Shown piece after piece: positions 4,038 to 40,270 of a stretch of DNA of 46,725 nt. The stretch lies in assembly GCA_011772645.1 (NCBI GenBank), contig WVZE01000036.1, positions 1 to 46,725 of the forward strand. Reading direction: 5' to 3'. Positions within the stretch are counted from its first letter, which is position 1, and each line of letters begins with the position of its first letter. This stretch comes from Candidatus Aenigmatarchaeota archaeon. GTDB lineage: Archaea > Aenigmatarchaeota > Aenigmatarchaeia > QMZP01 > QMZT01. Position numbers and translations under genes: made by a program. The notes beneath the pieces were generated by a model. It searched no databases and was not told the origin of the DNA. It was given only the letters and a program-made list of their open reading frames with translations.

Positions 4038-4075
4038 TTGAATCCTTTTTATCGGGGAAAGAACAATTAATAAAC

Positions 4076-6175
4076 ATGGTGAGTTTTTTCAGAAAAAAGA
4101 AGGAGAAAGAGGAGAAACCTGATGATTTTATAAAAAGTTACGGAAAACTCCGGATGCCACCGAGCGAGACCAGGCCGAGCATAGTCTCCAGGGAATACAA
4201 GATTTTCAAGAAAAGGGAAGAAAAACGCCTGGGCTGGTTCGAATTTCTGGCGAAAATTTCCGGGAAAATACTGCAGGCGAACCCTGACGAGAACACAAAG
4301 AGGGAGATGGAGAACGCGATATCCTTCACCGGTCTGAGGGTCACGCCCCAGGATGTTATGGCGCTGGTTATACTTGACATAATATTTTTTGTGGGCCTTT
4401 CCGTGATCCTTCTGTTTTCCGGTTCTGTTCCTCTCGTTGTTTCCCTCTTTCTGGCTGCCTTCGGGATAGGTCTCTCTTACTACTTCCTCAGGTATCCCCT
4501 GAATCTTCTGAAATCCTACAGGATAAAGGCTTCCTCCCAGGTTGTCCTTGCCGTGCTCTACATGGTTGTTTCGATGAGGATTTCCCCGAACCTGGAGCAG
4601 GCGTTGAGATTCGCTTCCGCGAACGTTTCGGGCCCGCTAGCCTGGGACATGAGAAGACTCATATGGGACATCGAGATGAGGAAGTATTATTCCGCTTCCC
4701 ACGCCCTCACCGATTACATCGCGAAGTGGAAATCGGAGAACGAGGAATTCGCAGAGGCCCTCAGGCTCATAAGGGATTCGCAGACACACCCAGGAAGGCG
4801 TTCTGAGGCGATCCTGAACGAGGCCCTTGACGTGATACTTGAGGGGACGAAGACCAGGATGAAACATTACGCGCAGGAACTCAGCATGCCCGTTACGATT
4901 ATCCACATGATGGGGATAATCCTTCCGGTTATAGGGTCCATAATGGCTCCGTTGGCGGCGGTGTTCCTGGCGGAGATGGTAAGGATGGAGTACTTCATCA
5001 TAGGATACGATGTTGTTCTGCCGGTGTTCCTGATATGGTTCATAAATTCCATCCTGAAGAGGAGGCCCACCACCTTCTCCCAGGTGGACACTTCCAGACA
5101 TCCCGATCTACCCCCTAAGGGGAATCTACTTATCAGGAGGGGGAAAACAAGGGTGATGATTCCCGTGCTGCCGATATCTATAGCGATAGGCTTGCTTTTC
5201 ATAATGCCGTCCGTTTATTTTTTCGCTGAAAACCCCGAGATAATATTCCCTCCGGAAGGCAGCTCACCGCAGCAGACCCCCGTCTCCCTTGCGATGTCAT
5301 GTTTCCTAACGCTCGGTATAGGTTTTTCCCTCGCGAGTTACATGCTGCTCACGAACTTCCAGAGAATAAGGATCCAGAGCGATGTTCTCAAAACGGAAAG
5401 CGAGTTCGAGCTCGCTCTGTTCCAGCTCGGGAACAGGATATCGGGCGGAACTCCCTCAGAGCTCGCCCTTGAGAAATCAATAGAGGACGTCAAGGACCTG
5501 AGCATCGCCGGCCTGTTCATCCTGACCCTGAGGAACATAAAGAACCTCGGAATGACCTTCAGGGAAGCCCTTTTCCATCCCAAATGGGGATCTGTCGCAT
5601 ACTATCCCAGCAGGCTGATAAAGAACATAATGTACATGATTGTTGACATCTCAAGGAAGGGGTTCAAGTACGCCGCGGAGGGGATGCTAACCGTTTCCAA
5701 ATACCTCCGCAACATCCGCGAAACGCAGGAGTACATCCGGGACCTCCTGCAGGAATCCGTTTCCTCCATGACCTTCCAGGCTTACATGCTCACACCCCTG
5801 GTTACGGGCCTGATCGTTTCCATGGCGCAGATAATAATAAAGGTCCTTACCATCCTGACCAGGCAGCTGGGGGAGCTGAGCACCGGAACGAACCTGCCCC
5901 TGGACATAACAGGAAGTTTTTTCGGGGAGACCCAAAGCGCGGTTTCTCCCGAGATCTTTCAGCTAATAATAGGAATTTATCTCATCGAGGTCATCTTCAT
6001 ACTGGGGATGTTCCTTACCAAGATAACCCAGGGTGAGAACAGAACGGCCCAGTGGTACATGACCGGTAAGATGCTGATCGTTGCCCTGTCCGTGTACTTC
6101 CTCGTGGCGATCGGGACGAGCCTCATGTTCGGCGAGATGATAACCGAGGCTGTGAGGTCAATAGGGATAACATAG
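4076..6175 (+). CDS. FlaJ/TadC-like polytopic membrane platform protein of a type IV pilus-like system
   Basis: Large multi-TM protein with two cytoplasmic soluble blocks, immediately downstream of the secretion ATPase. This pairing is the canonical ATPase plus platform core. Start is uncertain: the track ORF opens at 3995 but would overlap the ATPase by 43 nt, so ATG 4076 (MVSFFRKKK) is preferred. Confidence 0.6.
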   Translation: MVSFFRKKKEKEEKPDDFIKSYGKLRMPPSETRPSIVSREYKIFKKREEKRLGWFEFLAKISGKILQANPDENTKREMENAISFTGLRVTPQDVMALVILDIIFFVGLSVILLFSGSVPLVVSLFLAAFGIGLSYYFLRYPLNLLKSYRIKASSQVVLAVLYMVVSMRISPNLEQALRFASANVSGPLAWDMRRLIWDIEMRKYYSASHALTDYIAKWKSENEEFAEALRLIRDSQTHPGRRSEAILNEALDVILEGTKTRMKHYAQELSMPVTIIHMMGIILPVIGSIMAPLAAVFLAEMVRMEYFIIGYDVVLPVFLIWFINSILKRRPTTFSQVDTSRHPDLPPKGNLLIRRGKTRVMIPVLPISIAIGLLFIMPSVYFFAENPEIIFPPEGSSPQQTPVSLAMSCFLTLGIGFSLASYMLLTNFQRIRIQSDVLKTESEFELALFQLGNRISGGTPSELALEKSIEDVKDLSIAGLFILTLRNIKNLGMTFREALFHPKWGSVAYYPSRLIKNIMYMIVDISRKGFKYAAEGMLTVSKYLRNIRETQEYIRDLLQESVSSMTFQAYMLTPLVTGLIVSMAQIIIKVLTILTRQLGELSTGTNLPLDITGSFFGETQSAVSPEIFQLIIGIYLIEVIFILGMFLTKITQGENRTAQWYMTGKMLIVALSVYFLVAIGTSLMFGEMITEAVRSIGIT

Positions 6176-18942: not shown

Positions 18943-19497
18943 TTAACCGCGGCTATCGAATTCTTTAAATATCTTCTCGAAAACCTTCTTTATCTCCGGG
19001 GTTTTTATGTTTAGTTTTCCGTCCTCGAAGAATTCCTCCAGGTCCTCGTGTTTTTCCGAGTATTTCAGCGCCTGCATGCACATCTCGAGCTTGTCGAGAT
19101 CCTTCACGAGCTCCGCTTCCTTTGATTTCCTGTATTCGAAATCCTCCCAGAGATCGTATATCTCTTTCGCTAGATCCTCAGGGAGGAAGGAAACGATTTT
19201 TTTCAGTCCCTGTTCTTCAAGCTCCCTCTTTTTCGAGTTAGGAACGACCTGATCCTCATCCCTTATCTTATCCGCTATGTCCCCGGAATAGACCTCGCAG
19301 ATGTCATGGATCAGGGCGAGCTTCACGGCTTTGCTGGAATCTAAACCCAGCTTTTTCGAATAAACATAAGCGAGAATCGCGAGCATGAAGGAATGGTCTG
19401 CCACGCTCTCCGGGTCGCGAACGCCCCTCTGAACCCATCCAGTGCGTTTCAGGTCCTTCAGTTCACTTACCTTTTTAGCGAAATCGAGGAGGTTCAT
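18943..19497 (-). CDS. HD-domain hydrolase, YfbR/HDDC2-like 5'-nucleotidase family
   Basis: RTGW...ESVADHSFMLA...LIHDICEVYSGDI...DKLEM matches the YfbR-type HD pattern. Confidence 0.75.
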   Translation of the reverse strand: MNLLDFAKKVSELKDLKRTGWVQRGVRDPESVADHSFMLAILAYVYSKKLGLDSSKAVKLALIHDICEVYSGDIADKIRDEDQVVPNSKKRELEEQGLKKIVSFLPEDLAKEIYDLWEDFEYRKSKEAELVKDLDKLEMCMQALKYSEKHEDLEEFFEDGKLNIKTPEIKKVFEKIFKEFDSRG

Positions 19498-19531
19498 GAA
19501 AATAATTATTTCATTAAATATAATAATAAAG

Positions 19532-20176
19532 ATGAACGAAAATATTGCTACTTTGGTTGGTCTGCATATAGGCGATGGTTCTTTAAGTAAATGGGTAAAT
19601 AAATCAACTGGAAAATTACAGGAAAAATGGACACTCTATCCAGGTGATAACATAAAGTTCGCTACTTCAGTGGTTCACTTCCTAAATAAATTGAATCTGA
19701 ATGCAAAAATTCATCCAAAAGACAAGAAATATTATAGAGTTGATTCATATGATGCAGTTGCCGTTTTAAAAAGATATTTCTTAACAGGAAATAAAACAAA
19801 GACTGTTGATATCCCTAAAGAATTCGTGCAAACACCTCTAATTAACAATGTACTGAAAGGGATTTTTTCCTGTGATGGATGCATAGCTTTCGGGAATAAG
19901 GGGATTTACCTATCGTTTGATACGGTTTCGGAAAGGCTTTCGAACAGTATTATGAAATCTTTGAAATTATTGAAATTAAATGCGTACCTTTACAAATATG
20001 AAGGTTTGAGAAAACTGCCAACGGGTAAAATATCAAAAAAAGAAATGTTTTGCGTAAGAATATGGTCAAAGAGCGATATTAATAAATTTATGAAAGAAAT
20101 AGGTTCAATAAACCCCAAACATCTTAAAAGATACAAAGAATGGCTGCGGGGGTACCCAAGTGGTCAAAGGGGCTAG
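19532..20176 (+). CDS. Free-standing double-motif LAGLIDADG homing-endonuclease-like protein
   Basis: Two LAGLIDADG-type motifs, LVGLHIGDGSL near the N-terminus and LKGIFSCDGCI about 100 aa later. Markedly AT-rich relative to neighbours. Start taken at ATG 19532 because the track start 19442 overlaps the HD gene. The last 31 nt overlap the tRNA-Leu gene. Confidence 0.6.
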   Translation: MNENIATLVGLHIGDGSLSKWVNKSTGKLQEKWTLYPGDNIKFATSVVHFLNKLNLNAKIHPKDKKYYRVDSYDAVAVLKRYFLTGNKTKTVDIPKEFVQTPLINNVLKGIFSCDGCIAFGNKGIYLSFDTVSERLSNSIMKSLKLLKLNAYLYKYEGLRKLPTGKISKKEMFCVRIWSKSDINKFMKEIGSINPKHLKRYKEWLRGYPSGQRG

Positions 20177-20249
20177 ATTGCCATGTGCAAGGCCAAGCTA
20201 AGGACCTAGTAGCTTAGTGCTTTCCTGGGTTCGAATCCCAGCCCCCGCA
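20146..20249 (+). tRNA. Class II tRNA, most likely tRNA-Leu, with a ~20-nt intron in the anticodon loop (about 20181-20200)
   Basis: Hand fold: acceptor GCGGGGG/CCCCCGC plus A73; class II D-arm CCC-AAGTGGTCAAA-GGG; long variable arm (AGC-TTAGT-GCT); T-arm CTGGG-TTCGAAT-CCCAG. The anticodon stem CTAGA/CCTAG encloses 27 nt instead of 7. Joining TTG to AGGA gives loop TTGAGGA (anticodon GAG). Splice points and anticodon are not certain. Confidence 0.65.
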
Positions 20250-21651: not shown

Positions 21652-21775
21652 AGCCCCGTAGTCTAGCGGCCAAGGATGCCGGGCCTTGGAGCACAGCTTT
21701 AAGGAGTTGAGTGGGGATTATTTCCACAATGACAGAGGAAACCCGGTGACGGCGGTTCGAATCCGCCCGGGGCTA
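21652..21775 (+). tRNA. tRNA-Gln-like (anticodon TTG at 21686-21688) with a 51-nt intron at the canonical 37/38 position (about 21690-21740)
   Basis: Hand fold: A1:U72 acceptor AGCCCCG/CGGGGCT plus A73; D-arm GTCT-AGCGGCCAA-GGAT; anticodon stem CCGGG/CCCGG; T-arm GGCGG-TTCGAAT-CCGCC. The layout aligns well with archaeal tRNA-Gln as I recall it. The loop reads CCTTGGA, so C instead of the near-universal U at position 33, and the isotype is therefore tentative. Confidence 0.6.
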
Positions 21776-21776
21776 T
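21761..21776 (+). repeat. attL-like direct repeat (within tRNA 3' end)
   Basis: Perfect 16-mer ATCCGCCCGGGGCTAT, with GGTT also shared 7 nt upstream of both copies. Confidence 0.8.
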
Positions 21777-21833
21777 GCTATCTGAGTCCAGATTGGGGTT
21801 TTCAATAAAACTCCGGGCGTAAGGAGTATTAAC

Positions 21834-23012
21834 ATGAAACCCCAAATAAACCTTGAATATAGCAAAATGGTAGAAAAACGAATTAAAACTTTTGAGGAAA
21901 AGGACAAAGTAAGACCCAGAAACAAAGAGCTTGTTCTGAAATTTGTCGAGAACGCAATAAGAGAAGGTATAGGAGAAAGGAGGATTGTGAAGTATTTTGG
22001 CGTGTTTAAAAACATTGACAACTTGCTTGGAAAGGACTTTGACAAAGCAATAAGGAAAGATATAGAGTTACTTGTAGGTAAAATAGCGACTTCCAAATAT
22101 GAAGCATGGACAAAATGGGCTTACAGAGTGATGATAAAGAAATTCTATAAGTGGCTCGAAGGTAGGAATGAAGAATATCCAGAAAAGGTAAAATGGATTA
22201 AATCCAAGCAAGGACCATGTAAAATAACTGTTCCCGAAGACCTTATAACAAGGGAGGATCTCAAAAAGCTAATAGAGACCTGCACAAGCGACAGGGACAG
22301 GTGTATTGTCGCCTTGCTTTATGAAAGTGGCTTTCGTATTGGCGAATTGCTAGGACTCAAAATAAAAGATATTGACTTTAACAGCGACCCTGTAAAAATC
22401 CTAGTAAATGCGGAGAAGACCAAAACCAAAAGGAGAGTCCCTATCGTTGAATCCGTTGGTTACATAGCAAGGTGGATTCAATCACACCCGGACAAAAAAC
22501 CACAATCCAGATTATTCGTAAATTGCGGGAAATACGCAGGAAACTCAATGAGTGCTCATTGTGTACGTAAGGTTTTGAAAAGACTCAAGGAAAATCTCAA
22601 CAACGGAAAGAAGTTAAATCCTCACTTATTCAGGCATTCCAGAGCGACGGAATTGGCAAACCATCTAACAGAAGCACAGATGAATAAGTTCTTCGGCTGG
22701 GCAAACGGCTCGGACATGCCGTCTGTATATGTTCATCTTTCCGGGAGAGACATAGACAACGCTATACTGAATTTGTATGGGAAAGGGAACAGAGAGGAAA
22801 AACTTCAGGGAAAATTGACACCTAGACTTTGCCCTAGATGTAAAGAAAATAATCTAGAGACAGATACGCTTTGTTTAAACTGCGGATTGCCCCTTGACGA
22901 AAAAACAAGAATGGAATTTATGAACAAAGCAAGGCATATGCAACCCATATACGAGAAAATCGAGGAGCTAATAGAGGCAAAAATCAAGGAAATTCTAAGT
23001 CTCAAGACCTAA
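21834..23012 (+). CDS. Tyrosine recombinase / phage-type integrase with C-terminal zinc-ribbon extension
   Basis: GFRIGELLGLKIKDID (Arg box), HLFRHSRATELA (HxxR) and SVYVHLSG (catalytic Tyr region), followed by CPRCKENNLETDTLCLNCG after the catalytic domain. Confidence 0.85.
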   Translation: MKPQINLEYSKMVEKRIKTFEEKDKVRPRNKELVLKFVENAIREGIGERRIVKYFGVFKNIDNLLGKDFDKAIRKDIELLVGKIATSKYEAWTKWAYRVMIKKFYKWLEGRNEEYPEKVKWIKSKQGPCKITVPEDLITREDLKKLIETCTSDRDRCIVALLYESGFRIGELLGLKIKDIDFNSDPVKILVNAEKTKTKRRVPIVESVGYIARWIQSHPDKKPQSRLFVNCGKYAGNSMSAHCVRKVLKRLKENLNNGKKLNPHLFRHSRATELANHLTEAQMNKFFGWANGSDMPSVYVHLSGRDIDNAILNLYGKGNREEKLQGKLTPRLCPRCKENNLETDTLCLNCGLPLDEKTRMEFMNKARHMQPIYEKIEELIEAKIKEILSLKT

Positions 23013-23116
23013 AAACCGATAGGCAGTGATATGTGGAAATTACAACAGGTATGTGTTTATAAACCGCATGGTTATTCCATTCATGAATGAAAAAAACGAA
23101 AACTTTATGGGAAGAA

Positions 23117-23136
23117 TTGTCAATTGCTGTTGACAA
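23117..23136 (+). promoter_or_regulatory. Inverted repeat TTGTCAA-N6-TTGACAA upstream of the element's wHTH gene
   Basis: Read directly. A further TTGACAA copy lies at 23751-23757, upstream of the RHH gene. Confidence 0.35.
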
Positions 23137-23168
23137 GGAAGTCAAAAGGAGAATTATGGAGGATCCTC

Positions 23169-23378
23169 ATGGTAGAAAATTACGATTTCGAGAAAATGCT
23201 TAGAGACATACTCAAGGAAAGACCCGTAAGCGTGGACACAATATCCGCCATAACAGGCTATCCATCAAACTACATAATTATGAAACTTCGCAGATTGCAG
23301 AAGTGGAACGAGGTAAAACCGGTAACAAAAAAGGAAGTAACGTTCTGGGCTTTGTGTAACGGGCAGGAGGTTTCTTAA
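23169..23378 (+). CDS. Small wHTH-like DNA-binding protein (element-encoded)
   Basis: 69 aa from ATG 23169. VSVDTISAITGYPSNYIIMKLRRLQKWNEV resembles an HTH recognition segment. The track ORF opens upstream at a TTG (23124). Confidence 0.45.
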   Translation: MVENYDFEKMLRDILKERPVSVDTISAITGYPSNYIIMKLRRLQKWNEVKPVTKKEVTFWALCNGQEVS

Positions 23379-23539
23379 TGAATGGCACTCGTTATCGGGC
23401 GAAGTGCCCTCGCTTGTCGAAGGACAAGCCCGTATCGTTGCCTTCTCTCCACTTCCACTACTTTGGCGATACCCGAAGGGCTTTTATTCGGGGAAGTGGG
23501 TCGAGGAAGCGGGAGCTCCTGAGACCCAAATTCAAATAA
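23378..23539 (+). CDS. Possible 53-aa basic ORF (below track cutoff), or alternatively a structured RNA region
   Basis: Hand translation gives MNGTRYRAKCPRLSKDKPVSLPSLHFHYFGDTRRAFIRGSGSRKRELLRPKFK. Its ATG overlaps the previous stop (TAATG). The region is GC-rich and hairpin-rich, so coding status is uncertain. Confidence 0.25.
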   Translation: MNGTRYRAKCPRLSKDKPVSLPSLHFHYFGDTRRAFIRGSGSRKRELLRPKFK

Positions 23540-23549
23540 AGGAGGAAAT

Positions 23550-23717
23550 ATGAAAAGATTAACACCAACTCAAGCAATCAGAAAGAAGTGTCTGGATTGT
23601 TCATGTGACCAGATTAAGGAAATTCGCAATTGCCCCATAGAAAGCTGTTCACTTTTTCCTTTCCGAATGGGAATGAGACCTGAGACCTACAAAAAAAGGG
23701 AAGAAAAAAATACCTAG
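23550..23717 (+). CDS. Small Cys-rich (zinc-finger-like) protein, 55 aa, below track cutoff
   Basis: Hand translation gives MKRLTPTQAIRKKCLDCSCDQIKEIRNCPIESCSLFPFRMGMRPETYKKREEKNT. A strong AAGGAGG lies 7 nt upstream. The CxxC...CPxxxC pattern resembles small mobile-element proteins I recall from phages and plasmids. Confidence 0.55.
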   Translation: MKRLTPTQAIRKKCLDCSCDQIKEIRNCPIESCSLFPFRMGMRPETYKKREEKNT

Positions 23718-23922
23718 AAAGCTAGGTAGTTATTTCACATAATTCCCTGTATTGACAATTAACCTATTAATGTATCTTATCTAGGACTTCACTTGATTAG
23801 TATAGAAATAACTTTACAACGAGCCGATAGATAACGGAAATTGAAAAACCACGAGAGAAAAAATACCCAAAATTCATCAAAATCTGAGGAGTTTCAGACA
23901 CTAAAAATAGGGTGTGCACACC

Positions 23923-24129
23923 ATGACAAGCAAGATAACTTTAAGCTTTGGTGTAAGGATGGATAAAAATCTAGTCGAAAAGCTAGACAAAATAGTGAAA
24001 GAATCTGAATATTTGAACACGAACAGGTCGGAAGTGATAGAATCAATCCTGAAGGCGTTCTTTAAATCGAAATTCAATCATCTGGAAAAGAGCAGAGAAT
24101 TGGTGATAATAGGCAGGAAGGAGGTTTAA
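23923..24129 (+). CDS. Ribbon-helix-helix (CopG/Arc/MetJ-like) protein
   Basis: KITLSFGVRMDKNLVEKLDKIVKES...NRSEVIESILKAFF fits the beta-strand plus two-helix RHH pattern. Confidence 0.6.
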   Translation: MTSKITLSFGVRMDKNLVEKLDKIVKESEYLNTNRSEVIESILKAFFKSKFNHLEKSRELVIIGRKEV

Positions 24130-24165
24130 ACATATTAATTTAAATTCATGATTTAATTCTAAAAA

Positions 24166-24900
24166 ATGGCAGGTGAAAAGGTATTAAAAAAGGAATTTGT
24201 AGATAAATTAGATGAAGAAAGACGCCATGAAGAAGTATTGAAACAACAGAAAAATTTTAATAAAAAAAAATTGGAGCAAGAAAGGAAATTTCATAAAGAA
24301 AGGCTGACACTTTTGAAAGAAATTGAAGAAGAAAAAAGTTCTTCCTTTTCATTATGGAACAAAATTTCAACTGCTCTTATGATAATTTTAGTTTTCGCTA
24401 ATGTTATATTAGCCTATGTATCATATCAGGGAATGCAAGACAATAGAATTTTAATAAATAAAACATTAGAAACATTATCCCCAATAGAGCCTGAGATAGA
24501 AATACGACTTATGAATGAGGTTAAAAGTCGTTCGTTCTCAACAAGATCATTAACAAGAGTATTTAGAGATGAAAACAATAATCAGTTTAGTGGAGCCATA
24601 TTAAATTTTAAAGTCATTAATTATGGGAGAAGGGATAGTGGACCCGTCCGTTTATATGTAGAAAAGAGTAATTTGACCAAAAGTTACAGTACTTATCTGG
24701 AAAATGTAAATGGTACAGAGTATGTACAACTCAGTTTATGGTACAAAGATTGTGGACATATAGATGGTGATTGTGATATTGAAAAGATACCTACTGGTAT
24801 ACAAGAAATAACGGTGGGTGTAAGATGTGATGGATGTAAAACTACGCTTAAAGAAGAAAAATATGAAATATGTATTTACGATAATACAACGAAATGCTGA
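24166..24900 (+). CDS. Hypothetical membrane-anchored protein: Lys/Glu coiled-coil N-terminus, one TM, Cys-containing C-terminal domain
   Basis: 244 aa and very AT-rich. TM segment ISTALMIILVFANVILAYVSY. The C-terminal part has 6 Cys (CGHIDGDCD...CDGC...C...C). Confidence 0.45.
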   Translation: MAGEKVLKKEFVDKLDEERRHEEVLKQQKNFNKKKLEQERKFHKERLTLLKEIEEEKSSSFSLWNKISTALMIILVFANVILAYVSYQGMQDNRILINKTLETLSPIEPEIEIRLMNEVKSRSFSTRSLTRVFRDENNNQFSGAILNFKVINYGRRDSGPVRLYVEKSNLTKSYSTYLENVNGTEYVQLSLWYKDCGHIDGDCDIEKIPTGIQEITVGVRCDGCKTTLKEEKYEICIYDNTTKC

Positions 24901-24955
24901 TTTTCTGAAGTCTTAATAAACACACCAATTTAAAACCTTTGGCGAATTTTGAAAT

Positions 24956-25717
24956 ATGAGAAAAGAAAGCAAAGAACTTACTTTCGCAATCAAGGCTGCG
25001 AAAGAAGCGGGAAAAATAACCTTAGATCAATTTGAAAAATTCAAGGATGTTAGTTACAAACCCGGCGAAGAGATCGTTACAGACGTGGATGTAAAGGCTG
25101 AAAGAAAGATCAAGGAAATTATAAAGAAACATTTCCCTAAACATAACATTCTGGCTGAGGAGGAGGGCGAAGATTTCGTTTCCAGTTCAGATTATCTTTG
25201 GATTATTGATCCTGTTGACGGAACAGTGAATTATAGTAGAGGGATAAAACTTTATGGGATTTCAATCGCCTTGGCAAAAAACAATGAAGTAGTTCTCGGG
25301 GTGGTCTACAATCCCATCTTTGATGAGCTATTTACAACTGAAAGAGGTAAGGGCGCATTCCTTAACGGTAAAAAGATAAAAGTATCTTCAGAAAATGAAC
25401 TGTTCAAAACAGTTATTTATTCAACTGAATTGTTCAGGACTAAAGAGATTATAAAAAATCTTTTCGATAGAGTTAGAAATTTGAGAATCACAAGTTCCTC
25501 TGCTTACGAGACATGTCTGGTTGCGTGTGGAAAGGTGGATGCGTATATCAAGGTTACGAATGTTCCTTGGGGCTTTGCCGCTGCCAATTTAATAGTTGAA
25601 GAGGCAGGAGGGAGAGTCACGAATTTTGATGGCTCTAAGTGGAACATTCACTCTAAAAATATTCTTTCTTCGAATGGAATTTTACACGAAAAAATCTTAT
25701 CACTTTTGGAAAAATAA
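24956..25717 (+). CDS. suhB: Inositol monophosphatase family protein (IMPase/FBPase-type)
   Basis: ILAEEEG, WIIDPVDGTVNY and the distal WGFAAANLIVEEAGG blocks are IMPase family signatures. Confidence 0.85.
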   Translation: MRKESKELTFAIKAAKEAGKITLDQFEKFKDVSYKPGEEIVTDVDVKAERKIKEIIKKHFPKHNILAEEEGEDFVSSSDYLWIIDPVDGTVNYSRGIKLYGISIALAKNNEVVLGVVYNPIFDELFTTERGKGAFLNGKKIKVSSENELFKTVIYSTELFRTKEIIKNLFDRVRNLRITSSSAYETCLVACGKVDAYIKVTNVPWGFAAANLIVEEAGGRVTNFDGSKWNIHSKNILSSNGILHEKILSLLEK

Positions 25718-25786
25718 AAACACCACTTTTAAATCGAAGTTCTGAATTATATATAGAAACCCCCTAAATCGTACTCAGTGGTTTAC

Positions 25787-25802
25787 ATCCGCCCGGGGCT
25801 AT
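25787..25802 (+). repeat. attR-like direct repeat (tRNA 3' end remnant)
   Basis: Second perfect copy of ATCCGCCCGGGGCTAT. It overlaps the stop codon of the minus-strand gene 25799-26200. Confidence 0.8.
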
Positions 25803-26200
25803 CTGTGGTAGAACTTGAAGGATCCTGTGGTGTCCTTTCCCAGACCGGTTATGCGGATGCTTATGTTAAGGGGATTTTCGGCCGGGGGAGAATTTCCCCA
25901 GAATTCGCAATTCAGGGATCTGGAAATGTAGATCACGTAGATCCTCCCTGTTTCCTCTTTCTTTATTACGGAATCCAGCTCTTCCAGGTAGGTCTCGAAG
26001 CTGTCATCGCTTCCGTTGCATTGCATACTCGCTTTTATCGTCCGGTTCACGTCTTCGGTCAGGCTCCTGATCGTGTGGGTGTCGCTCAGCCTCATGGGCT
26101 CGGAGATATCAATAAGCGTGTACTGAAACAAAACCTGCTGGACAACAAATATCAGGCCGACAAGAAAAACCATCGCGACAACAAACATCTGACCCTTCAT
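25799..26200 (-). CDS. Small secreted/membrane protein with class III (type IV pilin-like) signal peptide candidate
   Basis: The N-terminus MKGQMFVVAMVFLVGLIFVV has a short basic leader, then G-Q, then a ~20-aa hydrophobic helix, as in archaeal prepilins. The rest is unrecognised. Confidence 0.4.
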   Translation of the reverse strand: MKGQMFVVAMVFLVGLIFVVQQVLFQYTLIDISEPMRLSDTHTIRSLTEDVNRTIKASMQCNGSDDSFETYLEELDSVIKKEETGRIYVIYISRSLNCEFWGNSPPAENPLNISIRITGLGKDTTGSFKFYHR

Positions 26201-40131: not shown

Positions 40132-40270
40132 GGTCCCGTAGCTCAGCCTGGTACCTTCGCTTCTCGCGGAGCGAGTGGGCACTTAGAGCGCACGACTGAT
40201 AACTAGCGAAAGAAGTCTATCGACTTCGTCGGATATCGTGAGGTCGCGAGTTCAAATCTCGCCGGGACCA
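40132..40270 (+). tRNA. tRNA-Ile (anticodon GAT) with two introns: about 31 nt in the D-loop (~40154-40184) and 33 nt at or near 37/38 (~40201-40233)
   Basis: Hand fold: acceptor GGTCCCG/CGGGACC plus A73. D-stem GCTC...GAGC is separated by AGCCTGGTA plus an extra ~31 nt containing the hairpin CTCGC-GGA-GCGAG. Anticodon stem CACGA/TCGTG encloses CTGATAA plus 33 extra nt. T-arm GCGAG-TTCAAAT-CTCGC. Confidence 0.7.

Follow-up and report, generated by a model that had tools for sequence, protein, structure and literature searches.

The cryptic integrated elements (CIEs) of Thaumarchaeota, which range from 2.6 to 98 kb, are defined by the presence of an integrase and attachment (att) sites together with the absence of viral hallmark, casposase and conjugation genes; they lie mostly at the 3' ends of tRNA genes, have a median att length of 17 bp, and often lack a recognisable replication protein (PMC6563490). 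One of them, the 2.6-kb NitUzo-E2, codes for an integrase, a protein of the winged helix-turn-helix (wHTH) type and a pair of hypothetical ones (Krupovic et al. 2019, PMC6563490). The PYG1 genomic island of Pyrococcus has no identified replication module and spontaneously excises to a circle (Li et al. 2016, summarised in PMC8371274). The integrases of such elements are classified into a classical and an SSV type, and all the archaeal integrases that have been characterised both integrate and excise without directionality factors (PMC8371274). The viruses and mobile genetic elements of the DPANN archaea are mentioned, in a paper citing that work, as having been surveyed earlier (Wu et al. 2024, cited in PMC13573593), and a text search of the literature returned no paper describing a tRNA-integrated element of Aenigmatarchaeota. 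Here we analyze a 46,725-nt stretch of DNA from such a host, an Aenigmatarchaeota (DPANN) archaeon (contig WVZE01000036.1 of assembly GCA_011772645.1; the whole stretch is hereafter called the window), and propose that its segment 21777-25802 is a 4.0-kb cryptic integrative element, which was inserted into a tRNA-Gln gene by its own classical tyrosine integrase. We put the probability of this reading at about 80%.

The element measures 4026 bp from repeat start to repeat start and is a CIE sensu Krupovic et al. (2019), a name that denotes a descriptive class and not a monophyletic family. It resembles the thaumarchaeal elements in its classical integrase beside a tRNA 3' end, its short att (16 bp here, against the median of 17 bp there), its small size, its wHTH and hypothetical proteins, its metabolic or other cargo, and its want of identifiable replication or virion genes. 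It differs from them in its DPANN host, in its target tRNA-Gln, and in a gene set, comprising a Cys-rich protein (Cys55), a membrane protein (mem244) and a phosphatase of the inositol monophosphatase (IMPase) family, that has not been reported for CIEs.

The segment is delimited by the 16-mer ATCCGCCCGGGGCTAT, which occurs in exactly two copies in the window, both on the forward strand (Table 1). The expected number of copies is 0, no dinucleotide-preserving shuffle reached two matches at up to two mismatches, and no third copy was found in the window, including the interior of the element, even with three mismatches allowed. The similarity of the pair extends to 23 nt, of which 20 are identical (87%; GGTTCGAATCCGCCCGGGGCTAT versus GGTTTACATCCGCCCGGGGCTAT), and this extension takes in a GGTT located 7 nt upstream of both copies. 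The left copy comprises the last 15 nt of a tRNA gene, namely T-loop, T-stem, acceptor 3' end and discriminator, along with a single nucleotide downstream of it. As a side observation, p133, a convergent gene of the host on the minus strand (25799-26200), has its TAG stop codon at 25799-25802, within the right copy.

The tRNA gene itself is recovered by the Rfam model RF00005 (47.5 bits, E=6e-8). The default ARAGORN output lacks it, but this negative stems from the settings: the gene carries an intron, and the prediction appears once introns are allowed. When 51 nt are spliced out, the anticodon stem becomes fully paired and the call is Gln(UUG); moreover, the acceptor stem, AGCCCCG/CGGGGCU, is that of the intron-less tRNA-Gln(CUG) adjoining a related integrase in another contig (L077; L-numbers designate the related loci, contigs and scaffolds compared with the window). 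An A1-U72 pair is a mark of archaeal tRNA-Gln. Hence, given the perfect stem after this splice and the match to the acceptor stem of L077, the target is most likely a tRNA-Gln(UUG) with a 51-nt intron. The label given by ARAGORN, Pro(UGG), was rejected, as that fold requires a C-A mismatch and an extra base.

To recover the corresponding locus in related genomes, we scanned with the FtsZ protein, taking one genome per species, and searched the resulting eight loci of Aenigmatarchaeota or organisms labeled 'uncultured archaeon' by tblastn with all window proteins. The gene order FtsZ-p133-tRNA-wHTH72-mem66-RpoD is contiguous in five of these loci (L007, L008, L010, L011 and L012), and L006 displays the same contiguous order as L007 except for mem66, which gave no tblastn hit. 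None of the six proteins encoded by the element has a tblastn hit at the locus in any of these six genomes. The junction sequence was inspected in five of them (L006, L007, L008, L010 and L012), and in each the tRNA runs straight into the p133 flank, as expected of an empty site; for L011 the observation is the absence of the element genes only. The case of L007, whose FtsZ is 91% identical to that of the window, is the clearest to follow: its tRNA ends in ...GGTTCGAATCCGCCCGGGGCTAT, the sequence that follows ...GGGGCTAT aligns with the window from 25803 onward, and the flank shared to the right of the core reads ...TTGAA(A/G)GATCCTGT(C/G)GTGTCCTTTCCCAG... Thus, the segment between the repeats is an insertion relative to the related genomes, because these have contiguous flanking genes and none of the six intervening ones. 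The composition of the segment is likewise foreign: its interior has a G+C content (GC) of 36.6%, against 48.0% for the rest of the window, and the GC at third codon positions is 21-52% in the element genes, against 55-70% in the genes for FtsZ, RpoD, mem66 and wHTH72 and 45% in p133, which lies beside the right repeat. Two metagenome assemblies at NCBI and one from Logan also contain an element 100% identical to that of the window.

The first gene of the element, reading away from the tRNA and beginning 58 nt from the att core, is an uninterrupted open reading frame (ORF) for a tyrosine integrase. Beyond its Pfam match (Table 1), it is recovered by the PHROGs integrase family phrog_1 (2.7e-31), and it retains the complete R-K-H-R-H/W-Y constellation of tyrosine recombinases: R (GFRIGE), K (KTKTKRRVPI), HxxR (HLFRHSRAT), W (FGWANG) and Y (SVYVHL) all align with the motif positions of Pyrococcus abyssi XerA (4a8e). 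Its residues 331-357 show weak zinc-ribbon matches. Given an unbroken gene and an att core situated outside its ORF, we assign the protein to the classical (type II), non-split and non-suicidal integrases in the classification of PMC8371274. Its 1819 homologues come mostly from uncultured archaea at 40-45% identity, with named sources including Nitrososphaerales (~45%), Syntropharchaeia, Nanoarchaeota and Thermoplasmatota; the nearest named viral integrases are those of the pleolipoviruses GacPV1 and ThalV2 (38-39% identity over 83-87% of the query, E=5e-66). Both among solved structures (4a8e, 1.2e-16) and in NCBIfam, the best match of the protein is XerA, with which it has the catalytic motif in common. 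The window integrase departs from XerA in that its N terminus is extended by a further region, its C terminus carries a zinc ribbon, and it lies in a foreign segment with its own att adjacent to it. Its identification as the chromosomal recombinase XerA was rejected, with a score of 109 bits against the NF040815 equivalog cut-off of 220; it is further disfavored by the absence of the gene at the locus in relatives, XerA being a conserved chromosomal gene.

A preliminary description of this DNA, made from its letters alone, had proposed an integrative element of ~4 kb in the 3' end of a tRNA gene, and this central claim is now supported by the repeats, the integrase and the empty sites. Its particulars on this side hold up equally well: the 16-mer is the tRNA 3' end and recurs perfectly, GGTT is shared 7 nt upstream of both copies as part of the longer imperfect repeat, and an intact, full-length integrase lies beside the tRNA. 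It had also named two observations that would speak against it, namely that the repeat is a common motif and that relatives have the same gene content without repeats. The former is contradicted by the occurrence of exactly two copies where none is expected, and for the latter the opposite was seen, with five genomes having an empty site.

Joining the right end of the element to the left yields a predicted attP of the form ...GAAACCCCCTAAATCGTACTCAG-TGGTTTAC-[ATCCGCCCGGGGCTAT]-GCTAT-CTGAGTCCAGATTGGGGTTTTC..., the junction sequences being ...GGTTTACATCCGCCCGGGGCTATGCTATCTGAG... for attP, ...GGCGGTTCGAATCCGCCCGGGGCTATCTGTGGTAGAAC... for a synthetic attB and ...CTCAGTGGTTTACATCCGCCCGGGGCTATGCTATCTGAGTCC... 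for a synthetic attP. The core displays partial dyad symmetry around CCCGGG and is flanked by the two arms of an imperfect inverted repeat (Table 1): local alignment of the left arm with the reverse complement of the right arm gives a score of 33, which was reached in 0 of 2000 shuffles. The left arm is conserved upstream of the integrases in L005, L016 and L077, and partly in L002, while a sequence resembling the right arm occurs at the end of a remnant insert in L009. The arms are probable candidates for the binding sites of the integrase, and strand exchange would take place within the 16-bp block of identity. We posit that a circular form, with an attP made up of the 16-bp core between arms of ~22 bp, would recombine with an attB that corresponds to the part of the tRNA-Gln(UUG) gene from the T-loop to the discriminator. 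Exchange in the identical core would regenerate an intact tRNA at attL and displace the original 3' end to attR. Thereafter the element would be replicated passively with the chromosome, and its movement between cells would depend on a helper or on chance uptake. Such passive maintenance is what the gene content most likely implies, because no replication initiator, virion or transfer gene is recognisable. Excision in the present day is plausible by analogy, given that the integrase and the arms are intact, that archaeal integrases excise without directionality factors, and that PYG1 offers a precedent.

Table 1. Positions of the features of the integrated element and its target gene in the window
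Feature	Positions	Strand	Remarks
Host tRNA gene	21652..21775	+	ARAGORN with introns allowed; Rfam; 51-nt anticodon-loop intron
attL core (left 16-bp repeat copy)	21761..21776	+	Imperfect identity reaches back to 21754
Left arm of imperfect inverted repeat (CTGAGTCCAGATTGGGGTTTTC)	21782..21803	+	
Tyrosine integrase, 392 aa, C-terminal zinc ribbon	21834..23012	+	PF00589 1.4e-27
wHTH84, 84-aa probable (winged) helix-turn-helix protein	23124..23378	+	Weak HTH evidence; homologues beside related integrases
Cys55, 55-aa Cys-rich zinc-finger-like protein	23550..23717	+	78% identical homologue at the same position in L005
RHH71, 71-aa ribbon-helix-helix-like protein (CopG/NikR N-terminal/Arc-like)	23914..24129	+	Weak family matches
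mem244, 244-aa membrane protein	24166..24900	+	GC 30%; no family match
IMPase-family phosphatase (IMPase/FBPase/SuhB-like), 253 aa	24956..25717	+	PF00459 6.9e-65
Right arm of imperfect inverted repeat (GAAACCCCCTAAATCGTACTCAG)	25756..25778	+	
attR core (right 16-bp repeat copy; displaced original tRNA 3' end)	25787..25802	+	

All six genes of the element lie on the forward strand, co-directional with the tRNA. The gene for wHTH84, the second conserved gene of the element family, has homologues that adjoin related integrases in L005 (32% identity), L016 (45%) and L077 (52%). The L005 homologue matches HTH_11 (3.7e-4), and the PDB profile and Foldseek matches of wHTH84 itself, the latter obtained with an AlphaFold2 (AF2) model with a predicted local distance difference test score (pLDDT) of 62, are mostly to winged-helix domains at non-significant values. 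It might function as a regulator, a recombination helper or a replication factor. Neither NCBI nor Logan lists Cys55 among its gene calls for this stretch; the protein has invariant CxxCxC...C....C and LFPFRMG features, gave no significant match in a PDB profile search, and has only three homologues in the databases, two of which are on virus-like contigs (one with terminase and DnaB-like genes, the other with YopX). RHH71, a putative transcriptional regulator, matches RHH_1 at 1.1e-3, which is below the Pfam cut-off, the NikR N-terminal region at 6.8e-6 (NCBIfam), and PHROG repressor families at ~1e-3. RHH71, mem244 and the IMPase make up the cargo of the element, which differs in composition from the integrase half. 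In mem244, a charged helix at the N terminus and a single transmembrane helix are accompanied by a domain of ~160 aa that contains Cys, with no family match in the Pfam, PHROGs, NCBIfam and PADLOC scans; about 50 distant homologues display the same layout of a transmembrane segment plus domain, one of them with a weak CARDB match. In its AF2 model, built with no alignment, a helix spans residues 3-103, with high confidence (pLDDT block means of 73-97) over residues 1-80 and pLDDT <50 from residue 90.

The last gene of the element codes for a phosphatase whose best PDB match (1e-50) is the inositol-1-monophosphatase 2p3n, presumably a Thermotoga maritima structure. Its closest named homologues are from Kerfeldbacteria (59%) and Patescibacteria (55%), against 47% for Aenigmatarchaeota, and a homologue with 65% identity lies on a contig of 33% GC beside a gene for an extracytoplasmic function (ECF) sigma-70 factor, i.e. 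in a bacterial context. The gene is absent from the locus in all relatives. The simplest reading of this pattern is that the element acquired a bacterial IMPase gene like those of the candidate phyla radiation (CPR).

Scans of all the ORFs of the element with Pfam, PHROGs, NCBIfam and PADLOC uncovered no replication, virion or conjugation genes, and PADLOC reported no defence system. In particular, no VirB4/HerA-type ATPase, coupling protein or relaxase was detected in the 4 kb (by comparison, the relative L002 has DUF87 and Orc1/Cdc6 proteins), and a tblastn search with the Rep of L077 recovered no remnant or pseudogene of it in the element or the window. The preliminary description had listed the same six genes between the repeats and had recognised no replication, capsid or conjugation gene among them; its inventory is confirmed in full and that absence persists through the four sets of scans, with its 'wHTH' and 'RHH' labels resting on weak matches. 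It had further suggested a search for kin of the integrase and the 55-aa protein; the nearest named viral kin of the former are pleolipoviral, and two homologues of the latter lie on virus-like contigs.

The relatives of the integrase place the element in a wider family, in which the succession of tRNA, arm and integrase is common to the closer members. The targeting of tRNA-Gln is family-wide: relatives with 53-69% identical integrases are also located at tRNA-Gln genes. In L015/L016 the integrase (69%) lies directly downstream of a gene resembling tRNA-Gln, whose T-loop contains a long intron. The 3' end of this tRNA does not recur within 7.3 kb in L016, which therefore represents a larger element, its gene content including membrane or secreted proteins, a DDE transposase and the wHTH84 homologue. 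In L077 (48-3714) the integrase (53%) lies directly downstream of tRNA-Gln(CUG) and is followed by the wHTH84 homologue and then by a rolling-circle Rep, which matches PF23343 (8.8e-7, above the Pfam cut-off) and Rep_1 (2.3e-5) and has an HUH-like HFH motif; this Rep also has an IS91-like zinc-binding N-terminal domain, and the contig ends inside its gene. L005 shows the same gene order of integrase, wHTH and Cys55 as the window element. Farther afield, L002/L003 (57%) are contigs of ~23-25 kb in which Orc1/Cdc6 and DUF87 ATPases are encoded and no tRNA is adjacent, and L017/L020 (38%) adjoin tRNA-Thr. No attR was found within the contigs of L016, L017, L020 and L077. The window element is probably a reduced member of this family, the fuller members of which carry a rolling-circle Rep or many more genes.

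Apparent decay and possible circularity were also encountered among these loci. L009 has, at the same tRNA (~4040-4850, between p133 and the tRNA), an insert of ~0.85 kb that lacks an integrase and contains a tandem pair of paralogous ORFs. The right end of this insert is similar to the right arm of the window element, with a degenerate core GCCCCGGGTTAT, and a further fragment, GTAGTTTACATCCGC, is located close to its left end. These fragments look like decayed remnants of related elements. In L022 (7627-9212), the sequence downstream of a tRNA with an intron holds an integrase that breaks off at about residue 150, as well as unrelated reverse-strand ORFs, the segment being bounded by a 17-nt direct repeat (CCCATCCGCGGCGTTTA) with copies 1.45 kb apart, at another tRNA; att repeats can thus survive the decay of their integrase. 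L004 (8809 bp, Logan SRR26113683) has a 20-nt terminal direct overlap, an integrase with 52% identity, and proteins of 602 and 774 aa without family assignment; it may be a complete circular element of ~8.8 kb.

The reading of the segment as an integrative element has to be weighed against other accounts of the same features. A native origin of the six genes, with a chance recurrence of the 16-mer, draws on nothing except the shortness of the repeat, and it is refuted by the repeat statistics and the empty sites: zero copies were expected, the right flank is homologous to the sequence downstream of the tRNA in five relatives, L011 likewise lacks the six genes, the GC differs by ~11 percentage points, and the tRNA-integrase architecture is common to related integrases. 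We accordingly give this arrangement next to no credence. More serious is the proposal that we are dealing with a dead remnant, i.e. a once larger plasmid or provirus from which the genes for replication and morphogenesis were deleted and which became a fixed island that no longer excises, with the perfect repeats reflecting recent integration or conserved tRNA-like sequence. Kin with 53-69% identical integrases do carry a Rep (L077) or show no second copy of the tRNA 3' end over 7.3 kb (L016), remnants exist at the same tRNA (L009) and at another one (L022), and no circular form turned up in IMG/VR as an attP junction; moreover, perfect repeats alone are no proof of activity, because L022 keeps its 17-nt repeats around a truncated integrase. 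Nevertheless, the window integrase is of full length with all its catalytic residues, both arms of the attP inverted repeat are intact, there is no pseudogene or Rep remnant in the element, and the conservation of wHTH84 and Cys55 matches that in L005, the closest relative. On balance, we consider a dead remnant unlikely, while granting it appreciable weight.

A different possibility is that the 4-kb circle is an autonomous mini-plasmid, which replicates by means of an unrecognised initiator (wHTH84, Cys55 or RHH71) or of host factors, in the latter case from an origin in one of the AT-rich intergenic regions. The conservation of wHTH84 and Cys55 with the integrase in L005, the presence of wHTH84 homologues in L016 and L077, and the position of the L077 homologue directly upstream of Rep, which suggests a replication-module context, are in its favor, and for the 2.6-kb NitUzo-E2 of Thaumarchaeota such a possibility has likewise been raised by Krupovic et al. 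(PMC6563490). Conversely, no protein has a replication-related match in Pfam, PHROGs or NCBIfam, the conserved small proteins, at 55-84 aa, are small for an initiator, and the IMG/VR scans yielded no free circular contig; we therefore deem such a plasmid improbable. Even less credit goes to the notion of a virus satellite or hitch-hiker, which a helper virus or plasmid of the same host would move after excision, in the manner of pSSVi/pSSVx or the nanohaloarchaeal spindle-virus satellites of plasmid origin. It would fit an element with its own integrase and without transfer or virion genes, the nearest named integrases are pleolipoviral (GacPV1 and ThalV2, 38-39%), homologues of Cys55 occur on virus-like contigs, and satellites of DPANN viruses have been described (bioRxiv 10.1101/2025.02.15.638363); however, no helper was identified, the integrase is the only gene in common with GacPV1, and the element has no recognisable packaging signal or capsid-interaction gene. 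Another idea is that of an active, self-excising minimal shuttle, with members of this tRNA-Gln-targeting family moving genes between co-occurring ultra-small symbionts and having delivered the Patescibacteria-type IMPase to a DPANN host of reduced genome; we regard it as doubtful, though less so than a satellite.

Several points weigh against our favored reading of a passively maintained integrative element. wHTH84, Cys55 or RHH71 may be an unrecognised replication protein, and to call the element 'non-autonomous' is an argument from absence. The composition differs between its halves, with 30-37% GC on the right (23.7-25.7 kb) and ~40% in the integrase half, such that the right half may have had a separate history, and the bacterial origin suggested for the IMPase gene comes from an identity ranking and one genomic context, not from a phylogeny. 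The 16-bp core is short, and the binding of the integrase at the arms is presumed. No empty site was found in the same population, as exact-protein look-ups of the flanking genes gave only occupied, 100% identical copies, and no circular junction was found either: scans of IMG/VR for the arm pattern of attL/attP, a relaxed form of the arm motif, the integrase protein and the attP junction in its exact form gave nothing useful, and the attP junction is absent from that database. A hint of a different kind comes from the scaffold L070 (GCA_012974965.1), where the base that directly follows the core is the first of a run of Ns (990-1198, corresponding to window 21777-22049), the remaining gaps of these assemblies being away from the att sites; this might mark an assembly-graph branch between occupied and empty alleles or be a coincidence, and is weak evidence.

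Among previously described elements, the SSV type (SSV1, pTN3, pT26-2, pSSVi) also comprises small archaeal elements that integrate into tRNA genes, and the satellite pSSVi is of comparable size. In that type, the int gene contains attP and is split into int(N) and int(C) when integration takes place, and the integrase has a KxxR motif (PMC8371274), whereas the gene in the window is intact and its product has HxxR. An SSV-type (type I, suicidal) element was rejected, the integrase ORF being unbroken and the core lying outside it. The temperate archaeal pleolipoviruses GacPV1 (BK065156, Geoglobus acetivorans) and ThalV2 (BK065158) have the nearest named viral integrases, whose gene occupies the left end of the provirus map. 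A rolling-circle Rep is present in GacPV1 and likewise in the relative L077; the window element has none, nor does it have a VP3-like or VP4-like structural gene. A provirus, whether head-tailed, pleolipoviral, spindle-shaped or of another kind, was rejected, with no structural match in PHROGs or Pfam and only the integrase in common with GacPV1, as were an integrative rolling-circle plasmid, with no HUH Rep and no tblastn match to the L077 Rep in the element or window, and an integrative conjugative element, with no conjugation gene detected in the 4 kb by Pfam and NCBIfam. PYG1 is similarly a replicon-less island with a classical integrase, and it is by analogy with it that excision is proposed for the window element. 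It is much larger, reportedly ~21 kb, and belongs to a hyperthermophilic euryarchaeon; its excision is experimental, that of the window element predicted.

The tRNA genes of this region have additional features. The anticodon-loop intron of the target gene (window 21690-21740) follows a pattern of (C/A)(G/T)TTGA(G/T), a variable hairpin, (A/G)TGA and an A/G-rich sequence, which is kept in the introns of L007, L009, L010, L011, L012 and L015 and resembles a k-turn or C/D-box-like element. Some of the tRNA-Gln homologues also have T-loop introns (~40 nt in L006, 16 nt in L008, 12 nt in L010 and ~70 nt in L015/L016), located within 0-2 nt of the start of the att core of the window, and L011 has a D-loop intron; L015/L016 are occupied by a related element despite their T-loop intron. 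As the att core starts 0-2 nt from the start of the 3' exon in the relatives with a T-loop intron, it is a possibility that the family could integrate into both intron-bearing and intron-less alleles. Elsewhere in the window, a forward-strand ORF (19442-20176, GC 33%) with a LAGLIDADG domain (PF14528, 2.5e-10) ends inside the start of an intron-containing tRNA (20146-20249) and has an 82% identical homologue at the corresponding position in L012; its product may be a free-standing homing endonuclease. A candidate third tRNA, Glu-CUC with a 47-nt intron, was found at 40132-40270 by ARAGORN with introns allowed, its D and anticodon stems being poor.

The element belongs to an ordinary kind of mobile element and does not constitute a new system; it stands out for its small size, its little-studied host and its bacterial-type sugar-phosphatase gene. 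Integration into intron-bearing alleles, if it does occur, would be relevant to the long-standing view of tRNA introns as a protection against integration. Descriptions of integrated elements from DPANN archaea are sparse, and in this case both att sites, empty sites, a predicted attP with conserved arms, and relatives from Rep-bearing elements to truncated remnants can be set side by side. The 16-bp core with its arms thus offers a defined substrate set for a family of archaeal integrases that is widespread in uncultured lineages, and the segment provides an example of an archaeal element that carries a bacterial-type metabolic gene in a host whose genome is reduced.

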